Source of the DNA: Saprospiraceae bacterium | GTDB lineage: Bacteria; Bacteroidota; Bacteroidia; Chitinophagales; Saprospiraceae | DNA: 64,000 bases | Assembly (NCBI GenBank): GCA_016787505.1 | Contig: JAEUUQ010000619.1 | Span: 316-64,315 of the forward strand | Reading direction: 5' to 3' | In this document: positions 1 to 49,222 of the stretch, one piece after another | Layout of the letters: each line of letters starts with the position of its first letter | How positions within the stretch are numbered: position 1 is the stretch's first letter | Notes under the pieces: generated by a model | Databases searched by the model: none | What the model was told of the DNA's origin: nothing | What the model saw: the letters and a program-made list of their open reading frames with translations, nothing else | Made by a program: the position numbers and the translations under genes

Positions 1-180
1 ACTGTTTAGTAGGGTTTAGTAGGGTTTAGTAGGGTTTAGTTTTCAAAACATACAGCTAAACCCTACTAAACTGCGAATGCACTAAACCCTACTAAACTGC
101 GAATGCACTAAACCCTACTAAACTGCCGAAGGCACTAAACCCTACTAAACTGCCGAAGGCACAAAACCCTACTAAACAGT
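1..180. repeat. Compound tandem-repeat hairpin element, truncated by the window edge. The left arm is about 4x GGGTTTAGTA. The right arm is 4-5 copies of a ~26-nt unit carrying the complementary ACTAAACCCTACTAAAC plus a mini-palindrome (TGCGAATGCA or TGCCGAAGGCA).
   Basis: Read directly. 5-50 is (TAGGGTTTAG)n and 57-178 is (GCACTAAACCCTACTAAACTGCSAAK)n. The arms are mutually complementary. Confidence 0.85.
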
Positions 181-200
181 CACAAAAAATCAAACAACAG

Positions 201-1370
201 ATGTTGATTTTTCAAGAAAATACAATCCTCCAAAAAACCACCTGGACAGAAAAAACCTGGACCATTCCGGAACTGCTCGAAGACGTCGACCCGCTTGCCG
301 GCGAACCCCTCACCGCCAGAAATGAAGCCCTGCAAAAAATAGTCAGCCTGGCGCCCCAAAACCTGCAGGAACTTTCCAAAACCGCCCAACTCCATCTCGA
401 TTTTTGGGATAATTTTCAAAACCAAAAAATGGAGCAACACGCGGCTATTTTCAGGTACACCGTGGGGGAAAACAAGCGCTGGGAATTGACAATCAACGAG
501 CTGGGACTTTTTTACAGAGACTTTTCGGGGCAGTACATGAACACGCCCGGCGGGGTTATGGAGCAGTTGTTCAGCAATTTCTGGTTTTACGGCCCCTTGC
601 GCCCGCTGCCGGATTTGCATCTTCGGGAAAAAATTATCAGCACCCTCAAACAGGGTTTTGAAAACCCGGACTGCCCTTCGGCAAAGGCGCATTTTGAGTT
701 ATTCGAGTACCCGCAGCAGCAGTCCCCCGCGGATTTAGCGTGGGAAGAAGGCGACCACGTGCGGCGCGATTTCACCACCGTGCGCCCGTTTGGGATCGAG
801 TTGGGACACACAACCTGGCGCGACGGTTGGAGTGGGACTGGTTTTATTTCTTTTGAAAAATTCCTGCACCTGCCGCCGACCGAATACCAGATCTTTTCGC
901 CCGAAATCCGGGCAAAAATCGAACAGTACCTCGGCAAAACCTCGCTTATTAACCAGGGCAAGACCGTAGAAACCGAGCCGAAGCCACCCACGCCGGGAGA
1001 AAAAATGGACGCTGCAGAGGCGCTTTTGCAAAACCCGGCATCCGAAGAAGGTGCAACCATGTTGATTTCCCTACTCGATTTCGAGGCGGAGAGCGACTAC
1101 TGGCGCAACTACGTTTTCAATCGTTTTTTCAAACTTCGGGAAAACCCGGTGGTGCAAAATTTTCTCCTTGAGTGCCTGCGCAGCGATGACGAAATCAGGT
1201 TCAACAAATCGCGCGATGTGCTTATGTTCTGGGGCTTGCAGCTCGGTGAGCAGGCCTTGTCAGATAAAGCACTATTGAAAAGTCTGAACTGGGAAGACGC
1301 CACGGCCAACGACCCCGATTTCCGGGCAGCCCTCGAAAAAGTTGGCAAAATCATCACCCGAAGAAGTTGA
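201..1370 (+). CDS. Hypothetical protein (389 aa); I cannot assign a family.
   Basis: Long ATG-initiated ORF with host-like GC. The overlapping antisense ORFs look like shadows. I recognise no catalytic or recombinase motif. Confidence 0.6.
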   Translation: MLIFQENTILQKTTWTEKTWTIPELLEDVDPLAGEPLTARNEALQKIVSLAPQNLQELSKTAQLHLDFWDNFQNQKMEQHAAIFRYTVGENKRWELTINELGLFYRDFSGQYMNTPGGVMEQLFSNFWFYGPLRPLPDLHLREKIISTLKQGFENPDCPSAKAHFELFEYPQQQSPADLAWEEGDHVRRDFTTVRPFGIELGHTTWRDGWSGTGFISFEKFLHLPPTEYQIFSPEIRAKIEQYLGKTSLINQGKTVETEPKPPTPGEKMDAAEALLQNPASEEGATMLISLLDFEAESDYWRNYVFNRFFKLRENPVVQNFLLECLRSDDEIRFNKSRDVLMFWGLQLGEQALSDKALLKSLNWEDATANDPDFRAALEKVGKIITRRS

Positions 1371-1518
1371 AGGTTGTAAAGCCGGGTATGTCATGCTTTT
1401 AGCTTGACAGAATGGGGTATGGTTTTGTATATTGCGGTGTGGTATCATCCTTATCTACCCCGGAATGGGGTGATTGGGATGAAAAAATCATACTTATAAA
1501 CAAGTTAGCGGCAACCTT

Positions 1519-2076
1519 ATGACGACAGTTAGACCATTAATAATAATCATGCTTATTGTCGGACTTGCATCCTGCAACGACAAGAAAAATATACTTGAGA
1601 TTAATACCAGTTCAGACATGACTAACCACAACAGCATTTTGTTCTTAGTTGAATCAGCAAACGTTCCAATTCTCGAAGACAGTATTGAACTTGAGCGGTT
1701 CTTAACACCAGGACAAATGACTTTTGCTTTTGACAGCATGACTGACAATAATTTTGACCCGCCTGTTTTCCGTAAGTTGGAATACAAGGATTACGGGACA
1801 ATCATAAAAACCAAAAATTATCAAACGGACTTGTTGCTTCTAATTGACAATGAAAAACGGGGTCGATTTTATAGTTTTACACTCAACTCTTATGACAAGG
1901 ACAGAAACAAAGTTGGTCATCTTGACTTCGCATCTTGGACAGACGAAAGCCATTGGAGTGGAAAAATTAACGGTGACACAATTGTGGAAATTAAGTGTGA
2001 CGAAACCGATGAGCAAAGACAATTTAAAATTTCAGAGAATGGTGAGTTTATAATGATTAACACAAATAAAAAGTGA
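1519..2076 (+). CDS. Hypothetical lipoprotein (cassette ORF).
   Basis: N-terminal signal peptide with lipobox (LIVGLASC). The ATG is 10 nt after the GTTAGC core. The 5' end (GTTAGCGGCAACCTTATGACGACA) is nearly identical to that of the beta-lactamase cassette. Confidence 0.65.
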   Translation: MTTVRPLIIIMLIVGLASCNDKKNILEINTSSDMTNHNSILFLVESANVPILEDSIELERFLTPGQMTFAFDSMTDNNFDPPVFRKLEYKDYGTIIKTKNYQTDLLLLIDNEKRGRFYSFTLNSYDKDRNKVGHLDFASWTDESHWSGKINGDTIVEIKCDETDEQRQFKISENGEFIMINTNKK

Positions 2077-2106
2077 AACAGGACATGCTGGACAGGAAAA
2101 AGGCTA

Positions 2107-2240
2107 CCGCTAACAGCACATTTGCAATAGGCGGGGTTTCGTGCTCCGCAGACAGGTTTGTGGTAGCCGAAAGTTTTGTGCTCCGAATAAACATTTGTGG
2201 TAAAAATCCCGCCCATCGCAAATCTGCAAAACGTTAGCGG
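2107..2240 (+). other. attC-like recombination site (~134 bp).
   Basis: Left end CCGCTAACAGCACATTTGCAATAGGCGGGG pairs, with bulges, to the right end CCCGCCCATCGCAAATCTGCAAAACGTTAGCGG. The terminal cores GCTAAC and GTTAGC fit the R''/R' logic. Confidence 0.7.
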
Positions 2241-2283
2241 TCATTGTAGGACGACCCACGAATACTAAACTCATAAAGACAAA

Positions 2284-2694
2284 ATGAACGACAAAATACA
2301 ATACATCAGCCCAGATGGGCTTTCAAAAAATCAGGCATTTTCACAGGTTGTAATAACACATGGTAATGGAAAGACCATCTATATTGGCGGACAAGACGCT
2401 GTAAACGAAAAAGGAGAAATAGTCGGTAAGGGAGACATTGCCGAACAGACAGAACAGGTTATGAAAAACATACAAACAGCACTTGTGGCTTGTGGCGCAA
2501 CATTTAACAATCTTGTAAAACTAACCATCCATATTGTTCAGGGGCAGGACTTACGACTTGGATTTCAGGCTTCGCAAAAGTATTTGGGAGGGCTTAAAAA
2601 CCCACCTGCAATCACAGGCTTTTTTGTACCAGCATTAGCACATTCCGATTTTTTAATTGAAGTTGATGCTATTGCATTTATTTCAGAAGAATAA
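2284..2694 (+). CDS. RidA/YjgF/L-PSP family protein (cassette ORF).
   Basis: 136 aa. The pattern FSQVV..G..IYIGGQ...EKGEIVGKGDIAEQTEQVMKNIQTAL...G..F.NLVKLTI is typical of the RidA fold family. Confidence 0.85.
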   Translation: MNDKIQYISPDGLSKNQAFSQVVITHGNGKTIYIGGQDAVNEKGEIVGKGDIAEQTEQVMKNIQTALVACGATFNNLVKLTIHIVQGQDLRLGFQASQKYLGGLKNPPAITGFFVPALAHSDFLIEVDAIAFISEE

Positions 2695-2777
2695 TCTAAA
2701 AGTGATTTAGCCGAACAACTTGGTAATAAAACAGCGACTGATATTTTGTAGAACAATGAGTGAAAAAGAACAACGAA

Positions 2778-2804
2778 CCGCTAACAGCAAGCAAAAGTAA
2801 GCGG
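2778..2804 (+). other. Collapsed attC remnant.
   Basis: CCGCTAACAGCA-AGCAAAAGTAAGCGGTC reproduces the two ends of the 2107-2240 site with the interior deleted and the core mutated (GTAAGC). The same GGTCATTGTARGAC sequence follows both cores. Confidence 0.5.
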
Positions 2805-2828
2805 TCATTGTAAGACAACCCTTGAATC

Positions 2829-3035
2829 ATGAGTAAATATAATCTCTTGTGGAAACATATTAAGAAAAATGGTGGACAATCATTAAAATTATCTTTTGAT
2901 GAAATTAAAAATATTGCAGAAATTGCAATAGACCATTCCTTTTTAAATTACAAGAAGGAATTGCTTGAATATGGTTATGAGGTGAAAAAGATTTCATTGA
3001 AAGATAAAACAGTGCTTTTTCAAAAGATTAATTGA
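2829..3035 (+). CDS. Small hypothetical protein (68 aa, cassette ORF).
   Basis: ATG ORF in the cassette orientation, 27 nt after the remnant core. I recall similar small LSFDEIK...IDHSF..YKKEL proteins of unknown function, but this is from memory only. Confidence 0.5.
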   Translation: MSKYNLLWKHIKKNGGQSLKLSFDEIKNIAEIAIDHSFLNYKKELLEYGYEVKKISLKDKTVLFQKIN

Positions 3036-3146
3036 CAACCAACAAAACGGGGACAAGACAAGGGACTGAAAAAACTTGCACTTGACCATTCATAAATTAA
3101 ACCAGAATTACAATGAGTATCATCAGTAACTACTGACAACTTCTTT

Positions 3147-3491
3147 TTGCCTTCCGATAATTTGGAAACAGCGAAAGATTTTTACAAAAACAAACTGGGA
3201 CTTGACATTAAGTTTGACTTTTCCGATAAGGGGATGGTTGCGTTTAAGGTTGGCGACAACGAACCCGCAATTATTCTGCGTAAAGAGGTCAGCGCAAAGC
3301 CTGCGATTTGGTTTACGGTTGAGAACGTACGACAGGCATACGAAGAACTAAAAACAAAAGGAGTTCAGTTCTTAATTGAACCCTTTGAAATAATGACTGA
3401 TCTTTCTGTTGAGTTCACCGACCCGTTTGGTAACAAACTTGGACTAACTGACTATTCAAAAATGCCTCATGTGCGTGGACAGAAAAAATGA
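3147..3491 (+). CDS. VOC/glyoxalase-bleomycin-resistance family protein, possibly 5'-frameshifted.
   Basis: DNLETAKDFYKNKLGL...FTDPFGNKLGL is the beta-alpha-beta-beta-beta VOC signature. The only in-frame start is TTG 3147. An ATG at 3113 is one frame off and stops after 7 codons. Confidence 0.7.
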   Translation: MPSDNLETAKDFYKNKLGLDIKFDFSDKGMVAFKVGDNEPAIILRKEVSAKPAIWFTVENVRQAYEELKTKGVQFLIEPFEIMTDLSVEFTDPFGNKLGLTDYSKMPHVRGQKK

Positions 3492-3528
3492 TGCACCCGG
3501 ACAACTAACAGACACAGGAGAACAACGT

Positions 3529-3661
3529 CCGCTAACACGGGTTTTGCGTTAGTGGGCAGACAGTGCGAATAGAAACATTTGAGCAATTAATAAACGTTGG
3601 TGCTGGCAGACAGTTTTCGGTTTCAAAAGCCCACCAACGCAAAGCCCGAAACCGTTAGCAG
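3529..3661 (+). other. attC-like recombination site (~133 bp).
   Basis: CCGCTAACACGGGTTTTGCGTTAGTGGGC ... CCCACCAACGCAAAGCCCGAAACCGTTAGCAGC. The ends are inverted complements with bulges. Confidence 0.75.
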
Positions 3662-3668
3662 CAACAAT

Positions 3669-4499
3669 ATGACGACAACCAAACAAACAATATTTCTACT
3701 GACTTTAGCAGTTTTCGGACTGACAGGTTGTGTGCAAAGACAGGCGACTGAAGTTCGTGCCGACTTTAAAAAGTATTATGACCAGTTCAATATTGAAGGT
3801 TCATTCGTGCTATACGACCCACAAGCGGACAAGTATATTTTTTACAACAAAGACCAATTCGAGCAGACTTTTTCACCTGCTTCAACTTTTAAAATTTGCA
3901 ACTCACTAATCGGTCTAGAGACAGGAGTAATTAAAGACGAGAATTTTGTAATTCCGTGGGACAGTGTAGTAAGAAATCCTGTATGGGATAAAGACCACGA
4001 CTTAAAGACAGCATTTGCAAATTCTACCGTTTGGTATTATCAAGAGCTTGCGAGACGTGTAGGAGGGCAAAAATTGAAATATTGGCTTGACCAAGCTAAC
4101 TATGGAAATGCAGACACTTCAGGCGGCATTGACCAGTTTTGGTTAACTGGCGGACTTCGTATCTCACCAAAACAACAAATTGACTTTCTAAAAAGACTAC
4201 ACGACAATCAGCTTCCTTTTTCCAAACGTTCAATAGATATTGTAAAAAACATAATGATTGCAAAGGACACATTAGACTATGTAATAAGAGCAAAAACTGG
4301 TTGGGGTGGACACGGTAAAAAAGATGTAGGTTGGTTTGTTGGTTATCTTGAGACAAATGACAATGTTTATTATTTCACTAATTGTGTTCAAATAGAAAGT
4401 GAGAAATTAAATGATGTCAATCGTGCGATTAGTTTTGACAATTCAAGGACAGAAATTGTTTATAAAATATTTGACGAACTTAAACTGACCAAGCAATGA
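3669..4499 (+). CDS. Class D (OXA-family) beta-lactamase, predicted lipoprotein (cassette ORF).
   Basis: All class D boxes are present in order: S-T-F-K (ASTFKICNS), S-x-V (NSTVWYYQEL), Y-G-N (ANYGNAD...FWL.GGLRIS), K-T-G (AKTGWG) and GWFVGY. Signal peptide with LTGC lipobox. I chose ATG 3669 because the longer ORF (from 3597) would run through the attC. Confidence 0.9.
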   Translation: MTTTKQTIFLLTLAVFGLTGCVQRQATEVRADFKKYYDQFNIEGSFVLYDPQADKYIFYNKDQFEQTFSPASTFKICNSLIGLETGVIKDENFVIPWDSVVRNPVWDKDHDLKTAFANSTVWYYQELARRVGGQKLKYWLDQANYGNADTSGGIDQFWLTGGLRISPKQQIDFLKRLHDNQLPFSKRSIDIVKNIMIAKDTLDYVIRAKTGWGGHGKKDVGWFVGYLETNDNVYYFTNCVQIESEKLNDVNRAISFDNSRTEIVYKIFDELKLTKQ

Positions 4500-4508
4500 G
4501 AATTGCTG

Positions 4509-4683
4509 CTGCTAACACGGGTTTTGCGTCAGGCGGGGTGAAGTGCAAACATGTAGCTTTCCCGCTGGGGCGGGACAAGTTGTGCTTCTATTCAAGTTCA
4601 GTGCTGGTTGACAGTTTTCCTGATAAATCGGGACAGGTCGTGCTCCGAAATCCGACACTTCGCCAAGCCCGAAACCATTACCA
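4509..4683 (+). other. Terminal attC-like site with a degenerate right core.
   Basis: The left end GCTGCTAACACGGGTTTTGCGT is near-identical to the 3529 site. The right end GCCAAGCCCGAAACCATTACCACC has CATTAC where GTTAGC is expected. Confidence 0.6.
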
Positions 4684-4763
4684 CCAATATTTCTGCAACT
4701 CCTCGCATTCAAAAGATTGGCAGACAACCTTTGTAAAATAGGACTTCAGCCATGATTTTGATC

Positions 4764-4797
4764 TGCGGAGAATATTTCTACTATTCTCCGCATTTTT
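4764..4797 (+). terminator. Intrinsic terminator closing the cassette array.
   Basis: Perfect 11-bp stem TGCGGAGAATA-tttctac-TATTCTCCGCA followed by TTTTT. Confidence 0.65.
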
Positions 4798-4841
4798 GCG
4801 GCAAATAATCCTTATATTTGCCGCAAGCATACTTGCAGACA

Positions 4842-5939
4842 GTGGCAAAATACATTTACGAATACGAAAACTGGACAAATTTTACCTGGCAGGATACTGC
4901 CATTAATGCCATATTTGGAGAAGTCCGAAACCTGCAGGGAAAAATAATCGGACAAATGAACACGCTTGGCTTTGCCACGAAAGCAGAAACCTCGCTTACG
5001 ACACTTACACTTGATGTGATTAAATCATCGGAAATAGAAGGAGAAAATCTTGACTATCAACAGGTTCGTTCTTCGATTGCAAGGCGACTGGGTGTTAAGG
5101 TGGCTGGATTAGTTCCTTCCGATAGAAATGTAGAAGGGATTGTTGATTTGATGCTTGACGCAACTCAAAATTATCAAAAACCACTTACGGAGGAACGTTT
5201 ATTCGGATGGCATTCCGCACTGTTCCCAGCCGGATTTAGCGGAATGCACAGAATAGAGCTTGGTCGTTACCGCTCGGGTGAAATGCAAATTGTTTCCGGC
5301 GCAATGGGCAAAGAAAGGGTTCATTACGAAGCAGTTGCTGCCCGCAAGGTTAAGGAAGAGATGGACAAATTCCTTAATTGGTTCAATGATGATTTAAAAA
5401 TTGACCCTGTGCTTAAAGCTGCTATCGCTCACTTTTGGTTTATTATCATTCACCCCTTTGATGACGGCAACGGAAGAATGGCAAGGGCAATTTCTGATTT
5501 AATGCTTACCCGTGCCGACGGTAGCCCAGCGCGTTTTTATAGTATGTCGAGCCAAATACTGGTGGAGCGTAAACAATATTATGAGATACTACAGAAAGTT
5601 CAACATAGCAGTGGTAATATTACTGATTGGTTAGACTGGTTTCTGCATTGCCTCAAAAATGCCTTATTAGCAACTGAGGACACCCTACAAAATCTATTGC
5701 GCAAAACTGAGTTTTGGAAAATTCACGAAAACACCGAATTAAACGAACGACAACGATTGGTGCTTAACAAATTATTTGATGGATTTGATGGCAAATTAAA
5801 ATCATCGAAATGGGCAAAAATTGCCAAATGTTCGCCCGACACGGCTTTGAGAGACATAAAAGATTTGATAGAAAAGGGGATTTTACGTCAAGAACAACAA
5901 GGGGGGCGAAGCACAAATTATGAACTGGCAGATTTCTAA
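4842..5939 (+). CDS. Fic family protein (AMPylase-type), class II, with an N-terminal DUF4172-like region and a C-terminal wHTH.
   Basis: Fic motif HPFDDGNGRMARA. Inhibitory motif SSEIEG ([ST]xxxE[GN]) lies upstream in the same chain. The start is GTG 4842 (MAKYIYEYENW...) or TTG 4818. Confidence 0.85.
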   Translation: MAKYIYEYENWTNFTWQDTAINAIFGEVRNLQGKIIGQMNTLGFATKAETSLTTLTLDVIKSSEIEGENLDYQQVRSSIARRLGVKVAGLVPSDRNVEGIVDLMLDATQNYQKPLTEERLFGWHSALFPAGFSGMHRIELGRYRSGEMQIVSGAMGKERVHYEAVAARKVKEEMDKFLNWFNDDLKIDPVLKAAIAHFWFIIIHPFDDGNGRMARAISDLMLTRADGSPARFYSMSSQILVERKQYYEILQKVQHSSGNITDWLDWFLHCLKNALLATEDTLQNLLRKTEFWKIHENTELNERQRLVLNKLFDGFDGKLKSSKWAKIAKCSPDTALRDIKDLIEKGILRQEQQGGRSTNYELADF

Positions 5940-6015
5940 AAGTAATAAAACCTAATGCATTGGGGGATCATGTTTTTTTTCGCAAACCACTTCATGATCA
6001 GTATAACTGCAAGAA

Positions 6016-6801
6016 ATGAAAGACAAACTACAAATAATTCCAACCGTCCTGCTTCCTGACTATCTGGAACGGGTCCCCAACGGTCTGCAGGCAGCTTTTG
6101 AGCTTTTGCAGGATGCGGAGATTTCAACAGATACCTTTAGCTTTTACACTTCGGTGTCATCTGTTTTCAGTAGCAAAATTGAGGGAGAAGATATTGAGTT
6201 GGACAGCTACATCAAGCACAAAAAATTCGGCATTGAATTTTTGCCCGATTACACCCAAAAAATTGACGACCTGTACGATGCCTATGCTTTTGCCCAAACA
6301 AACGAACTGAACGAGAAAAACATAGCAGAGGCGCACCAATTGTTGAGCAAACATATAGTGGCAAAAAACTGGCAGGGTAAATTCCGCAACCACAACATGT
6401 TTGTAACAACTCCTGACGGGCGTATCGAATATGTAGCTGCATCGCCTTTTGAGGTAGAAACCGAAATGAAAAAATTCTATGATGATTTAGCTATCCTCCT
6501 CAAAACGGATATGAGCATTCAAGAAGTATTTTTTTTCGCTTCCATGATTCACCTGGTGTTTGTAAAAATTCACCCCTGGAATGACGGAAACGGAAGAAGT
6601 GCAAGGCTTCTTGAGAAGTGGTTTCTGGCTCAAAAACTTGGCCCCAAAGCATGGTTTGTGCAAAGTGAAAAGTTGTATTATCAACAGCATCAAACGTATT
6701 ACAACAACATTCGATTATTAGGCCTGGAATATCCCGAATTAGATTATAAACAGGCCTTGCCTTTTTTGCTGATGCTACCAAACACTATATTCAATGGCTA
6801 A
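6016..6801 (+). CDS. Fic family protein, class II (second, shorter paralogue).
   Basis: Fic motif HPWNDGNGRSARL. Inhibitory motif SSKIEG. Confidence 0.85.
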   Translation: MKDKLQIIPTVLLPDYLERVPNGLQAAFELLQDAEISTDTFSFYTSVSSVFSSKIEGEDIELDSYIKHKKFGIEFLPDYTQKIDDLYDAYAFAQTNELNEKNIAEAHQLLSKHIVAKNWQGKFRNHNMFVTTPDGRIEYVAASPFEVETEMKKFYDDLAILLKTDMSIQEVFFFASMIHLVFVKIHPWNDGNGRSARLLEKWFLAQKLGPKAWFVQSEKLYYQQHQTYYNNIRLLGLEYPELDYKQALPFLLMLPNTIFNG

Positions 6802-7459
6802 AATATTATTCCGCCTGCCATCAAGTAATATACTCGCTCCAGTCGCTCTGCTCCTGCTCACCTGCTCCTGCAGCAACTACTACCGCCACCTGGAGCCCGC
6901 CGCTGCCGAAAAAACAGCACAAGCCGGAATATTTACAGCACAAACCGAGGGCCTGGCCTACGACACTAATGTGCGCTTTCGCAAAACGGAGGTCAGCGGC
7001 ATCCTGTTTATTCAGCCGCAGGACAGCAGCCGCTACCGAATGGCGATGACGACAAAAATGGGGCAGAAAATCTTTGACTTTACGCTCACCCCGCAGCATT
7101 TTACGGTCAATTATTGCTTTCCGCAACTCAACCGCAAGATTGTGCTTCAGTTGCTGGAAGCCGACCTGCGCCTGCTCACGGAATATTTTGACAGCCTGTC
7201 AGCCGCTTCGGCATTCACAGATACCAGAAGCCGGCAAACTGTATTTCGGATAAAAAAGGGAAAGTCGTACCTTTACTTCCGATATGACAACACCGGCGAA
7301 CAGCCGGCGGGTTTAGAAAGCGGCAGCAAAAGGCGCCCGAAGATATTGGCAGACCTGAAAGATTATGAAGGGGCCTTGCCGCACCGCATCAAGCTCGAAC
7401 ACCGGATGATTTTTCCGCTCAGGCTCGACTTGTCCTGGGTTTCACTCAACGATGAATAA
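6794..7459 (+). CDS. Putative lipoprotein, first gene of the biosynthetic operon. It occupies the position of LolA/LolB-like carriers in aryl-polyene/flexirubin-type clusters.
   Basis: Signal peptide followed by LLTCSC. Overlaps the upstream stop by 8 nt. The functional assignment rests on synteny only. Confidence 0.5.
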   Translation: MAKILFRLPSSNILAPVALLLLTCSCSNYYRHLEPAAAEKTAQAGIFTAQTEGLAYDTNVRFRKTEVSGILFIQPQDSSRYRMAMTTKMGQKIFDFTLTPQHFTVNYCFPQLNRKIVLQLLEADLRLLTEYFDSLSAASAFTDTRSRQTVFRIKKGKSYLYFRYDNTGEQPAGLESGSKRRPKILADLKDYEGALPHRIKLEHRMIFPLRLDLSWVSLNDE

Positions 7460-7468
7460 GAAGCGATT

Positions 7469-7840
7469 ATGCTGGTTGACGATTTTTTTACAATAAAAAC
7501 AATACAAAACGAGGCCGGAAAAAGCCATGCCCGGCTGCGGCTCAACGCCGACCATGCGATCTTCCAGGGCCACTTTCCGGGCAACCCGGTGGTGCCCGGC
7601 GTTTGTATGGTGCAAATGCTGAAAGAACTGGTAGAAACCAGCCTCGGCCGAAGCCTGCAACTCGAAAAAGCGCCGATGATCAAATTTTTGGCTATCCTGC
7701 AACCTGCCCAGCACCCCGAAATCGACGCCGTTTACGACATAGCGGAGCTGCCGGAAGGGAAAGTGCAGGTATCCGGACAAATAACCGACGCAGAGTTAAC
7801 TTTTTTTAAATTCAAGGGCATTTTTCATGCACAATCCTGA
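7469..7840 (+). CDS. FabA/FabZ-like (hot-dog) 3-hydroxyacyl-ACP dehydratase.
   Basis: HFPGNPVVPGVCMVQMLKE matches the catalytic-His motif of FabZ/ApeI-type dehydratases. 123 aa. Confidence 0.75.
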   Translation: MLVDDFFTIKTIQNEAGKSHARLRLNADHAIFQGHFPGNPVVPGVCMVQMLKELVETSLGRSLQLEKAPMIKFLAILQPAQHPEIDAVYDIAELPEGKVQVSGQITDAELTFFKFKGIFHAQS

Positions 7841-9047
7841 CTACCCATCGCTGTTTGACCGCTGGAAAACCTGCGTGGTTATCCCCACCTACAACAACGC
7901 CGGCACCCTGCCGCAGGTGATCGAATCGGTATGGGCTTATACCCGCCACATCATCGTGATAAATGACGGCTCTAGCGACGACACCGCCGCCATTTTGTCG
8001 GACTGGGCAGACCGCATCACCGTACACCATCTCCCCAAAAACAGCGGCAAAGGCATCGCCCTGCGCAAAGGCTTCGAATTGGCCATAACCCTGGGTTACG
8101 AACGCGCCATTACCATAGATTCCGACGGGCAGCACAGGGCCTCCGACCTGCCCCGCTTCCTCGAATCCCTCGAAAAATACCCCGACGCGCTGATGGTCGG
8201 CGCCCGCAATATGGGCCAGGACAATGTACCGGGCGCCAGTAGTTTTGGACACAAATTCTCCAACTTCTGGTACCAGGTCATGACCGGCAGGCAGCTCCCC
8301 GATACGCAATCGGGCTACCGGCTTTATCCGCTCAAACCCCTGCAAGGCATGCATCTGTTTACCACCAAATACGAGCTGGAAATGGAAACGCTGGTGCGCC
8401 TGAGCTGGCTGGATATACCGGTGCTGCCCATCCCCATCGACGTATACTATCCGCCGCAGGGCGAGCGCATCACCCATTTTCGAAAAATACCCGATTTCTC
8501 GCGCATTTTTGCCCTCAATACCCTGCTGGTGATCATCGCCATATTTTACGAGCGCCCGCTGGCCTTCTTCCGGGAATTCAAAAAAAAAAGCGCCCGTGAT
8601 TTTATAAAAACTTACGTATTCGACAGCAACGAAACCAACCGCGAGATCACTTACGCTGTCATGCTGGGCTTATTTATCGGCGTTTCTCCGTTTTGGGGAT
8701 ACCAGATCATGCTGGTCATCTTTTTCTGCGTATTGCTGAAGCTCAACAAGGTCATTGCCCTGGTGGCCGCGCATATCAGCATACCGCCCATGATTCCGTT
8801 TATTCTTTATGGCAGTTACAAAGTAGGCCAGCTTGTATTACACGGCAGCTTTGTGGCCGATAGCGTAGCCTTTAGCAAGTCTATGTCTTTCAGCGACATC
8901 AAACACCATTTTTTTCAATACGTGGTGGGCAGTTTTGCACTCGGCATGGCGCTGGCCGTACTGGCCGGGGTGGTCTTGTACCCCTTGCTATGGCTATTGC
9001 GGCCCCACAAGCAAATAGCAAACCCCGACAATAGCGAAGCGATATGA
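7827..9047 (+). CDS. Family 2 glycosyltransferase fused to a DUF2062 membrane domain.
   Basis: CVVIPTYNNAGTLPQVIESV...VINDGSSDDT...DSDGQH is a GT2 signature. The C-terminal half, SPFWGYQIMLVIFF...AAHISIPPMIPFILYGSYKVG, is DUF2062-like. Confidence 0.8.
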   Translation: MHNPDYPSLFDRWKTCVVIPTYNNAGTLPQVIESVWAYTRHIIVINDGSSDDTAAILSDWADRITVHHLPKNSGKGIALRKGFELAITLGYERAITIDSDGQHRASDLPRFLESLEKYPDALMVGARNMGQDNVPGASSFGHKFSNFWYQVMTGRQLPDTQSGYRLYPLKPLQGMHLFTTKYELEMETLVRLSWLDIPVLPIPIDVYYPPQGERITHFRKIPDFSRIFALNTLLVIIAIFYERPLAFFREFKKKSARDFIKTYVFDSNETNREITYAVMLGLFIGVSPFWGYQIMLVIFFCVLLKLNKVIALVAAHISIPPMIPFILYGSYKVGQLVLHGSFVADSVAFSKSMSFSDIKHHFFQYVVGSFALGMALAVLAGVVLYPLLWLLRPHKQIANPDNSEAI

Positions 9048-9420: not shown

Positions 9421-9503
9421 GTTTAGCGATTGGGGTGAGTTGTAGGTTGTAGGTTGTAGGTTGTAGGTTGTAGGTTGAAGCCAACTAAACCCTATCGCTA
9501 AAC
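9421..9503. repeat. Tandem-repeat hairpin element inside the operon.
   Basis: GTTTAGCGATTGGG pairs with CCCTATCGCTAAAC. The loop carries 5x GTTGTAG. Confidence 0.85.
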
Positions 9504-9533
9504 TGCTACGAAAAACAAAACAAACTGATAAAC

Positions 9534-47752: not shown

Positions 47753-49222
47753 TCACCTTGCCCCCGAAATCAACTTCAGCGTATTGCGCTTGAGGTCATC
47801 ATAGGCGCCGTTGTTTTGGTTATTAAAAACGAGCAGTGCGATGTCCAAACGGGGGAAATAGCGGAACTCGAAATTTACGCCGCCCGCTGTACCGCCGTGG
47901 CCGTAGGTATTTTCTTGTGCATGCCGTTCGAGAATAAGTCCCAGCCCGTAAGGTTGAGCGTCATTTGTACCTTCCGTCCAATCCGTCGTCATCAACTTCA
48001 GGCTTTCAGCGCTTACCAACTGATTGTTTTTTAATGCTTTACAAAAGCGAAGCATATCGTAAGCATTGGAATAGCAGCCGCCGGCAGGCGAGCCTTTTTT
48101 GAATTGTTTCGCCCTGTTGTTTTGCCAGCCGCCGCCTTCTTTGCGGGCATAAGGCACAACGAGCGGCAGCGTGTTATCGCGGTGGTCGAAAAAACCGCTG
48201 TGCGCCATTCCCGCTTTTTTTAAAATATACTGTTCGATATATGGGTAATAATCCTGCCCGCTCGCTTTTTCGATAACTGCCCCCAGCAGCATAAAATTGG
48301 AGTTGGAATAATAAGACTCCGTGCCCGGCTCAAATCGAAATCCTTCTTTGTAAATCAGAGGTATATACTGATGCCAGTCGGTAAATTGCAGCATAGCCCC
48401 TTCGTTTTCCTTAGTCCAATATTCGGCGATACCGGAGGTGTGTGAAAGCAGGTGTTTGAGCGTCACCCGCTCCGCCCAGGCCTTGTTCGGGAAATCGGGG
48501 AAGTAGTCGGTGAGTTTATCCGTCAGTTGCAGCTTGCCCTGCTCCATCAACTGCACGATGGCGGTAGCGGTAAACATCTTGCTGCCCGAGGCCAGCCCGA
48601 ACAGGCTTTCCGCATTGATTTTCCGGGCGTTTTCCAGGTCGGCGGAACCCCAATATTTTTCAAAAAGCACCTGGTCGCCCTTAGCGATGAGAATGCTGCC
48701 GGAGAGGTCATTTTCCCGCTCCAGTTTTTCGATGTAACCGTTGAGCCAGTCCAGCGTTTCCCGCTGTTCGATGCTGCCGTTGGGCAGGGCTATCGGCTCG
48801 GCGACTTCGGCGATAAACGCCAATTTGTCAATACGGTGCGGCGCTGAGGTTTCGAGGTAAAACTGGAAATCCTGCCACATCACCTCACCATGTTTGCGGG
48901 CATAGATATGCATCACGTAGGTTGTGCCGCCGGGTTTCCGAAACTCCAACCGCTCGCTGTGGTGGTATTCGAGCGGGGCATAATGTTGGTGCAAACTTTG
49001 AAAATGCGCGACGATACGCTGTATGCCCAATTTTTCGATGGTGGACGGGGCATAAACTTCTTTGGTAATAATTACTTGTAAAGCTGTATCCGAAGTGTTG
49101 ACAGCTTCCATGAAGCGTCTCCCCAACTGTTCAATGCCGGGCGATTGGGTGGAGGTCTGGCAGGCGGCTGCCTGGACAAGCAGTAGGGCGGTCAGAAAAA
49201 AAAATTGAGTTAGTTTTGGCAT
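47753..49222 (-). CDS. Serine hydrolase of the beta-lactamase/transpeptidase (class C-like) family with an N-terminal extra domain.
   Basis: Signal peptide. SxxK (ASGSKMFTA) and YxN (YYSNSNF). Confidence 0.8.
   Translation of the reverse strand: MPKLTQFFFLTALLLVQAAACQTSTQSPGIEQLGRRFMEAVNTSDTALQVIITKEVYAPSTIEKLGIQRIVAHFQSLHQHYAPLEYHHSERLEFRKPGGTTYVMHIYARKHGEVMWQDFQFYLETSAPHRIDKLAFIAEVAEPIALPNGSIEQRETLDWLNGYIEKLERENDLSGSILIAKGDQVLFEKYWGSADLENARKINAESLFGLASGSKMFTATAIVQLMEQGKLQLTDKLTDYFPDFPNKAWAERVTLKHLLSHTSGIAEYWTKENEGAMLQFTDWHQYIPLIYKEGFRFEPGTESYYSNSNFMLLGAVIEKASGQDYYPYIEQYILKKAGMAHSGFFDHRDNTLPLVVPYARKEGGGWQNNRAKQFKKGSPAGGCYSNAYDMLRFCKALKNNQLVSAESLKLMTTDWTEGTNDAQPYGLGLILERHAQENTYGHGGTAGGVNFEFRYFPRLDIALLVFNNQNNGAYDDLKRNTLKLISGAR

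Follow-up and report, generated by a model that had tools for sequence, protein, structure and literature searches.

A low-G+C cassette array occupies positions 1504-4683 of a 64,000-nt stretch of a Saprospiraceae bacterium genome (GenBank assembly GCA_016787505.1, contig JAEUUQ010000619.1, positions 316 to 64,315), the whole of which we call the window. We conclude that it is very probably a decaying, integrase-less chromosomal array of a non-canonical, Bacteroidota-type integron-like system. A first-pass annotation of the same DNA had described an integron-style array with attC-like sites and no integrase in view; the integrase-less cassette array stands, whereas the details borrowed from canonical integrons, namely the core sequences, the extrahelical bases and the IntI insertion, do not. 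What appears to be new, in the literature covered, is the site family together with an insertion-less head recombinase as a cassette system; integrase-less arrays as such are already known as attC site clusters that have no integron integrase (CALINs).

Inspection of the array reveals three full imperfect palindromes of ~130-175 nt and one collapsed copy, at the four places where attC-like sites had been annotated (Table 1). The open reading frames (ORFs) are co-oriented on the plus strand, with a site downstream of the one or two ORFs of each cassette. Exact GTTAGCGG and CCGCTAAC octamers occur five times in the window (at 1504, 2107, 2233, 2778 and 3529), and one-mismatch matches elsewhere in the 64 kb are at chance level. 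A family-specific covariance model, built from an alignment of 123 distinct sites, matched the sites strongly. The scores of 121.6 bits at 3527-3663 and 118.3 bits at 2105-2242 hold by construction, because attC2 and attC1 are both members of the model, while attC3, outside the model set, scored 41.9 bits (E 1e-8) at 4507-4686. The collapsed copy (2776-2806) reached 11.8 bits (E 0.45), with both R-box halves aligned and 112 internal positions skipped. The model detected no further site in the window, so the sites are not dispersed repeats: the other 59 kb contain no copies and the palindromes are confined to the array. No Rfam family matched the sites, the sole matches being spurious microRNA hits on repeats at 1-119.

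Each intact site favors its bottom strand. The model scores the intact window sites at ~120 bits on the bottom strand versus ~37 on the top strand, and folding as single-stranded DNA (ssDNA) gives -32.8 kcal/mol (z -5.65) versus -25.8 (z -2.4) for attC1 and -26.8 (z -3.4) versus -22.7 (z -1.9) for attC2, in both cases better than the top strand and far better than shuffled sequences. In attC1, the bottom-strand hairpin runs from the R box through a TTTT bulge, a helix of 3 bp and a stem of 16 bp to a terminal loop of ~75 nt. The changes in attC3 were seen by alignment with type-C sites in two other genomes (L008 and L013) and with the related genome L121, described below. The two attC3 insertions (within 4555-4644) resemble each other (CCCGCTGGGGCGGGACAAGTT and CCTGATAAATCGGGACAGGTC, 21 nt each), and by comparison with near-identical type-C sites elsewhere each sits directly 5' of a GTGCT motif.

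The intact sites belong to a large family. A search pattern derived from the two of them (GCTAACA-N5-TTTGC ... GCAAA-N5-AAANCGTTAGC) was applied to species-representative genomes and, in its strict two-ended form, matched at least 119 genome stretches (labelled L here). Almost all taxa among the matches listed are Bacteroidota of many orders, with some Ignavibacteria/Chlorobi and two stretches labelled Proteobacteria. The latter are a 795-nt contig of Pseudidiomarina fusca (L007) and a metagenome-assembled genome (MAG) labelled Asaia bogorensis (L113), and their sites may reflect contamination, mis-binning or transfer beyond the phylum. Sites are mostly 128-132 nt long. The consensus hairpin of the 123 aligned bottom strands contains 22 pairs, 10 of them with compensatory double changes (for example, one pair with GC 54 / CG 36 / UA 7 and another with UA 61 / AU 57). 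G-U pairs are frequent on the bottom strand only, and several pairs alternate between G-C and G-U, so that the top strand would bear A-C mismatches at those positions.

The geometry of this hairpin departs from that of canonical attC sites. Throughout the family, a bulge of 4 nt separates a 7-8 bp R box (GCTAAC:GTTAGC) from a short helix, beyond which lie a 15-16 bp stem and a terminal loop of 70-80 nt. The R box is the same in all 123 members, an invariance that arises in part because the search pattern fixed it. The bulge lies on the 5' (R'-L') arm, where it leaves an asymmetric unpaired stretch beside the R box, and reads TTTT in attC1, GTTT in attC2 and (G/T)TTT family-wide; no bulged bases occur on the 3' arm (L'') of the bottom strand in the window sites or in the family alignment. 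Canonical boxes, in comparison, fit RYYYAAC/GTTRRRY, and in canonical sites the 3' arm of the bottom strand bears the extrahelical bases, close to L'' (PMC5027507). The annotation had thus been right to expect attC-like pairing in an imperfect hairpin with bulged bases, although the bulge is one of 4 nt on the R'-L' arm and not two extrahelical bases on L''. Its assignment of the cores to the RYYYAAC/GTTRRRY class was mistaken; the real boxes are CGCTAAC/GTTAGCG, with two of the four degenerate positions off in each and a fit confined to the triplet and the positions beside it.

Two further regions of the sites carry conserved sequence. The terminal loops (2136-2202 in the window, and the family alignment) contain repeated TTTGTG(C/G)T-type motifs at a spacing of ~18-19 nt; the attC1 loop has two ~37-nt units, and loop sequences are conserved within site subtypes across orders. 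Speculatively, the recombinase introduced below could bind these motifs, as an array, through its extra N-terminal domain. Past the right core, 122 sites conserve GTTAGC-NNNN-A, with 1.7 bits at +11, and a TA at +15/16 that GACGAC often follows. This conservation spans 16 nt into the next cassette, with or without an ATG there, and is represented in the window by 1504-1527, 2233-2256, 2797-2820 and 3654-3677. Canonical integrons conserve just ~6-7 nt past the core.

Sites of this family are arranged in arrays. In 60 full-length 8-kb loci, all distinct sites of any one locus share one strand, and arrays reach ~12 sites (L097) at a spacing of ~0.5-1.4 kb, with other long examples in L010, L058, L008 and L071. 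Whereas attC1 and attC2 share only 50% identity with one another, sites in other orders reach 93.5% identity with attC1 (L003) and 92% with attC2 (L046 and L006). That is to say, each resembles distant sites more than it resembles its neighbor, which points to a shared cassette pool.

A tyrosine recombinase lies directly at the array head in 7 of the at least 119 loci. Six of these genes are co-directional with the cassettes, with ~85-215 nt from the end of the gene to a GTTAGC-type core (~100-135 nt for the closest four); they encode proteins of 345-383 aa with 75-110 extra N-terminal residues. The seventh gene (L041) is divergent and encodes a 298-aa protein. In the reverse direction, recombinase homologues chosen irrespective of sites (from Spirosoma, Saprospiraceae and Dyadobacter) had co-oriented sites downstream in three of three cases. 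The recombinase family includes 7967 proteins at E <= 1e-30 among 8000 candidates scored, mostly annotated as XerD or 'tyrosine-type recombinase/integrase'. An eighth locus, L059, retains a 32-residue C-terminal recombinase remnant (5651-5746, 87.5% identical to its counterpart in L087) adjoining an array of at least six sites, as read from the sequence a case of recombinase loss in place. In Dyadobacter psychrotolerans (L126, 10001-19600), a complete recombinase-headed array has at least four model-detected sites, and beyond it lie further co-oriented small ORFs, one of them encoding Arr-ms (rifampin ADP-ribosyltransferase); resistance genes thus occur in such arrays in cultured strains.

The array-head proteins were compared with described recombinases. 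Against NF040815 ('site-specific tyrosine recombinase/integron integrase', XerA type) they score 192-239 bits around a cut-off of 220, and against TIGR02249 all seven score 173-238 bits, below the cut-off of 265, aligning in two pieces with model positions ~178-244 skipped. Residues 181-245 of the VchIntIA structure correspond to only 23 residues, while the archaeal XerA structures (4a8e, 5hxy) give one continuous alignment and XerA is the best match by sequence. A structural model of a family member matched VchIntIA (2a3v) first and XerA second by fold, and its N-terminal 60 residues form a confidently modelled beta-beta-alpha-beta-beta-alpha domain. Judged by these alignments, the array-head recombinases lack the IntI-specific insertion.

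The cores act as cassette boundaries across genomes. A homologue of cassette 1 in L119 is 81% identical in DNA and 82% in amino acid sequence (tblastn), with similarity beginning at 1511, just past the core, and ending at 2119 inside R''. A homologue of the RidA cassette is the first cassette beside the recombinase in L061, a Saprospiraceae MAG (76% DNA, 73% amino acid), and here DNA similarity begins exactly at 2233, the core G. ORFs start 15-51 nt past the G of each core (annotated as 10-46 nt after the core), and the two cassettes noted for a common start do share it, with GTTAGCGGCAACCTTATGACGACA at 1504 and GTTAGCAGCAACAATATGACGACA at 3654.

Cassette content at this locus differs between two related genomes. 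L121, a Saprospiraceae MAG (GCA_016715405.1), matches the window at 92% DNA identity in the host gene upstream of the array, 84% in the attI-like region and 92-93% in downstream genes. The two part directly after GTTAGCNGCAAC. Right after GTTAGCAGCAAC, L121 carries a DpnII/MboI-like cassette with its site and then a Fic cassette with its site; similarity resumes from the right core of an L121 attC, where L121 13776-15025 matches window 4672-5950 at 92%. The boundaries on either side are conserved, and the four window cassettes and two L121 cassettes therefore fill the same slot. The comparison that the annotation had suggested thus shows different cassettes meeting the same flanks at junctions between G and TT. 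With strong hits by the family-specific model, palindromes confined to the array and cassette content that varies, none of the conditions named in the annotation as refuting its reading was observed.

The array head resembles an attI site. A solitary leading core at 1504 in an attI-like position had been annotated, and it is borne out by L121, which shares it, and by recombinase-headed arrays: window 1443-1511 aligns with the spacers between recombinase and first cassette in L106, L087, L044 and L085. Within the 110 nt that precede the first core lie two ATCAT(A/C)C-TTAT-type repeats, a small palindrome and the junction at which TTATAAACAA abuts GTTAGC. Upstream, the promoter-like site facing the cassettes is the best consensus match in 1300-4900 and reads TTGGCA...TATATT in L121. 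The promoter scan as a whole was at chance level (8 sites versus 8.5 expected), with only this site, at 11 of 12 positions, notable; we infer a candidate cassette promoter at 1404-1433. A metagenome scan with the exact 32-nt attI junction gave no match, and with a shortened junction it gave one contig, L129 (Ga0308414_1027094, 2751 nt). On this contig, an attI-like junction of TTATCATACTTATAAACGA with GTTAGC precedes two cassettes, the first metal-transporter-like, with a site between them and no recombinase. The L129 array is flanked by two direct copies of one insertion sequence-like element and looks like a composite-transposon-borne array.

No recombinase accompanies the array, as the annotation had noted. 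Neither tblastn with an IntI1 sequence and the seven array-head recombinases nor a Pfam scan of 29 of the window ORFs of >=180 aa found a tyrosine recombinase in the window, where the search spanned 62 kb downstream and 1.5 kb upstream of the array. At permissive thresholds, tblastn found no recombinase or remnant in window 1-1600 or in L121, which has no recombinase within 10 kb upstream or downstream of its array (21 kb covered). L121 served in place of the sequence upstream of the window, exact-sequence look-ups of the products of ORFs 201-1370 and 7827-9047 having given no record. A cis recombinase is usually co-directional and ~100-135 nt before the first core, so ORF 201-1370, which ends 134 nt upstream of the attI-like site, fills the expected slot, as the annotation's unrelated plus-strand ORF. 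Because of this location the ORF was considered as a novel array-head protein and rejected: it matches no family model, and its relatives form a family inherited vertically within Saprospiraceae. Its product is matched at 100% identity by a protein from a Saprospiraceae MAG and at 91% by the L121 orthologue, while homologues at 49-53% identity occur in other contexts, without sites.

Several observations weigh against the array being a working member of such a system, or against its having changed by site-specific events. attC3 folds no better than shuffles (z -0.1), and both L121 sites score only ~52 bits. Damage is seen in two of the four downstream sites, namely the collapsed copy with its GTA core and attC3 with its ATT core and insertions. 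The VOC gene is apparently frameshifted as well: in its start region (3113-3149) translation from the ATG at 3113 yields MSIISNY and halts after 7 codons, the domain continuing in another frame, so the N-terminus is probably frameshifted. The same frame state is found in L001, a 1477-nt Logan contig from a public read set that carries cassettes 2-3 in the same arrangement, two single-nucleotide differences apart; the contig breaks off within attC1 and within attC2, which is what assembly would be expected to produce at repeats found in several contexts. Given the damaged sites and the apparently frameshifted gene, the array may now be inert. The recombinase, moreover, was found neither in the window nor in the 21 kb of L121, and the difference between the two genomes could stem from homologous exchange of whole segments. 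Both genomes are without a cis recombinase yet carry different cassettes, which leaves either a recombinase acting in trans, the cis gene having been lost or never present, or a homologous segment swap.

Among alternative explanations, an ordinary CALIN, that is, the remnant of a canonical integron with standard attC sites whose insertion-bearing IntI was lost, survives best and is nevertheless unlikely. CALINs are well known and common, and in most cases no intI pseudogene lies nearby (PMC4889954). The term covers two or more attC sites without an integron integrase within 4 kb; here there are four putative attC sites, scored by the family-specific model, and no recombinase across the 62 kb downstream or 1.5 kb upstream. 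Likenesses to integrons and CALINs are several: co-oriented, mostly single-ORF cassettes end in imperfect palindromes that bear AAC/GTT triplets, folding is best for the bottom strand, junctions fall between G and TT, an attI-like site with direct repeats has a promoter-like site upstream, the cargo includes a class D beta-lactamase, and the L041 recombinase is divergent, as in class 1 integrons. What decides against a canonical remnant is the enzyme and its substrate. Integron integrases are defined by an additional domain (Messier and Roy 2001, cited in PMC4889954), and residues of the IntI insertion contact the two extrahelical attC bases (PMC3053210). The array-head recombinases fall below the TIGR02249 cut-off and skip or shorten this region (alpha-I2, beta-4,5), and the sites lack extrahelical bases on L'' and have a bulge on R'-L' and cores outside RYYYAAC/GTTRRRY. 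Most of these recombinases also carry the added N-terminal domain of ~75-110 aa and are co-directional with the cassettes, and the long loop is conserved within subtypes across orders, in contrast to the variable terminal structure of canonical sites. Sedentary chromosomal integrons, such as the Vibrio cholerae superintegron with its Vibrio cholerae repeats (VCR), resemble the present locus in being chromosomal and kept in position in related genomes, in their ~130-nt sites and in cargo mostly of no assigned function that includes toxin-type (Fic) genes. The array here differs in being small and without a cis integrase, and its mutual site identity of 50% against 92-93% to distant taxa is the opposite of the sedentary pattern.

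It is very unlikely that the cassettes are Xer-type modules moved by host XerC/D-like resolvases at dif-like sites, as proposed for the pdif modules of Acinetobacter plasmids. Such modules are likewise small, often OXA-bearing and bounded by tyrosine-recombinase sites with no dedicated recombinase adjacent, as in the window, and the array-head recombinases are annotated as XerD, score at or near the NF040815 cut-off and align uninterrupted with XerA. pdif sites, however, are 28-nt double-stranded XerC/XerD sites in alternating orientation, with 11-nt arms around a 6-8 nt spacer, whereas here cores ~115 nt apart are joined by a covarying, strand-specific hairpin of ~130 nt, always in one orientation. 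XerA itself resolves chromosome dimers at dif, while the recombinases described here head cassette arrays beside an attI-like site, mostly with the added N-terminal domain, and find their best fold match in VchIntIA. That the palindromes are generic repetitive extragenic palindromic (REP) or miniature inverted-repeat transposable element (MITE)-like repeats or transcription terminators, unrelated to cassette exchange, is extremely improbable and already largely refuted: although they are intergenic, hairpin-forming and GC-richer than their surroundings, they have no copies in the rest of the window, are strictly co-oriented downstream of ORFs in arrays, favor by their G-U pattern the strand complementary to mRNA, contrary to a terminator role, mark the point where cassette homology begins and are tightly associated with one recombinase family. 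A canonical remnant, repeats or terminators, and Xer/dif modules all fit worse than a decaying array of a non-canonical integron-like system.

Table 1 Features of the cassette array and its flanks (window coordinates).
Feature	Position	Strand	Description
Host flank gene	201-1370	+	389 aa, no Pfam/NCBIfam family; outside mobile unit
attI-like region	1399-1511	+	84% identical to L121 11285-11400
Promoter-like site TTGACA-18-TATATT	1404-1433	+	Faces cassettes; 11/12 consensus positions
attI-like repeat TATCATCCTTATC	1443-1455	+	
attI-like small palindrome ACCCCGGAATGGGGT	1457-1471	+	
attI-like repeat ATCATACTTATAAACAA	1487-1503	+	
Leading core GTTAGCGG	1504-1511	+	Presumed crossover between G and TT at 1504/1505
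Cassette 1	1505-2233	+	Lipoprotein-like ORF 1519-2076, 185 aa, no family, and attC1
attC1	2107-2240	-	Intact; 118.3 bits minus vs 36.9 plus strand, fold z -5.65
Cassette 2	2234-2797	+	RidA-family ORF 2284-2694, PF01042
Collapsed attC	2778-2804	-	R'' and R' 11 nt apart; right core GTAAGCGG (GTA)
Cassette 3	2798-3654	+	68-aa ORF 2829-3035 and VOC/glyoxalase ORF 3147-3491, PF00903
attC2	3529-3661	-	Intact; right core GTTAGCAG; 121.6 bits minus vs 38.1 plus strand, fold z -3.4
Cassette 4	3655-4677	+	Predicted class D (OXA-type) beta-lactamase ORF 3669-4499, lipoprotein signal peptide
attC3	4509-4683	-	Decayed: broken stem, two 21-nt insertions, right core ATTACCA not GTTACCA
Resident Fic/DUF4172 cassette	4678-5950	+	ORF 4818-5939, Pfam; also in L121
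Second Fic gene	5951-6831	+	ORF 6016-6801, low-GC insert, no counterpart in L121

The cargo (Table 1) is as annotated: RidA, VOC/glyoxalase and class D beta-lactamase genes (the last PF00905 and NF012161) are accompanied by small ORFs, two of which match no family in Pfam or curated collections. The product of cassette 4 is by sequence a predicted class D beta-lactamase. It scores 257.5 bits against NF012161 (cut-off 250), shows the motifs STFK, STV, YGN and KTG in its translation and has 6nhs as its closest solved structure; no named OXA family reached its own cut-off. The array is AT-richer than its neighbors, as the annotation had remarked, with a GC content of 31-43% versus 50-58% in the flanks, and the low-GC block reaches ~6800, including two Fic genes. 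The covariance model recognized no site on either side of the second Fic gene, which at its end runs over the start of the following ORF (6794).

The locus is embedded in an aryl-polyene-like cluster with ketosynthases, acyl carrier proteins, and ApeP-like and ApeI-like genes. Two intergenic regions of this cluster, at 1-190 and 9440-9510, contain decamer tandem repeats followed by inverted copies: the first has AGGGTTTAGT four times and then five 26-27 nt units containing CTAAACCCTACTAAAC, and the second has GTAGGTTGTA-type repeats and then ACTAAACCCTA. Both recur in L121 (9883-9990 and 17697-17844) with a different copy number (five units versus two), and they may be operators or regulator binding arrays. 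Far from the array, at 47753-49222, a separate 489-aa protein of the serine beta-lactamase/transpeptidase fold (PF00144) is encoded beside an AraC-type regulator in DNA of host-like composition.

If the system works by analogy with integrons, its cassettes, each of one or two ORFs and a ~130-nt site joined between G and TTAGC, would move by single-strand, bottom-strand recombination: the bottom strand would fold, the recombinase would cut at the AAC/GTT triplet and cassettes would enter the attI-like site. At this locus the recombinase would be supplied in trans, now or formerly, and the cassettes would be transcribed from the promoter-like site at 1404-1433. A broader reading, plausible though tentative, is that Bacteroidota and Ignavibacteria/Chlorobi harbor a widespread and perhaps unrecognized integron-like lineage, with an insertion-less IntI/XerA-like recombinase, usually bearing an N-terminal domain and co-directional with the cassettes, and with sites of different unpaired-base geometry, such that tools made to detect standard integrons would overlook them or assign them wrongly. 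The present locus would then be an orphan attI platform in a host biosynthetic cluster, holding different cassettes in two genomes and served in trans. Complete integrons are reported as nearly absent from Bacteroidetes proper, Salinibacter ruber providing the one example named (IntegronFinder 2.0, PMC9024848). In an integron-like subgroup of tyrosine recombinases the integron insertion 'is not fully conserved', with no arrays described (PMC8138268), and in the Chryseobacterium resistome resistance genes were recorded beside 'XerD' with no cassettes recognized (PMC11194056). The literature covered, which leaves out most subscription journals, gave no account of this site family, nor of Bacteroidota cassette arrays headed by insertion-less recombinases.

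If such elements do work like integrons, a large cassette pool has been overlooked in a major environmental and host-associated phylum. The at least 119 genome stretches and the thousands of recombinases mostly annotated as 'XerD', set against the near-absence of reported Bacteroidetes integrons, suggest a possible blind spot, and the pool includes resistance genes, with the predicted class D beta-lactamase here and Arr-ms downstream of the Dyadobacter array. An enzyme without the insertion that reads extrahelical bases, paired with a site that lacks those bases and has a bulge on the opposite arm, would offer a natural experiment on ssDNA site recognition, and a recombinase-less attI-like site with differing cassettes bears on whether such arrays can be served in trans.

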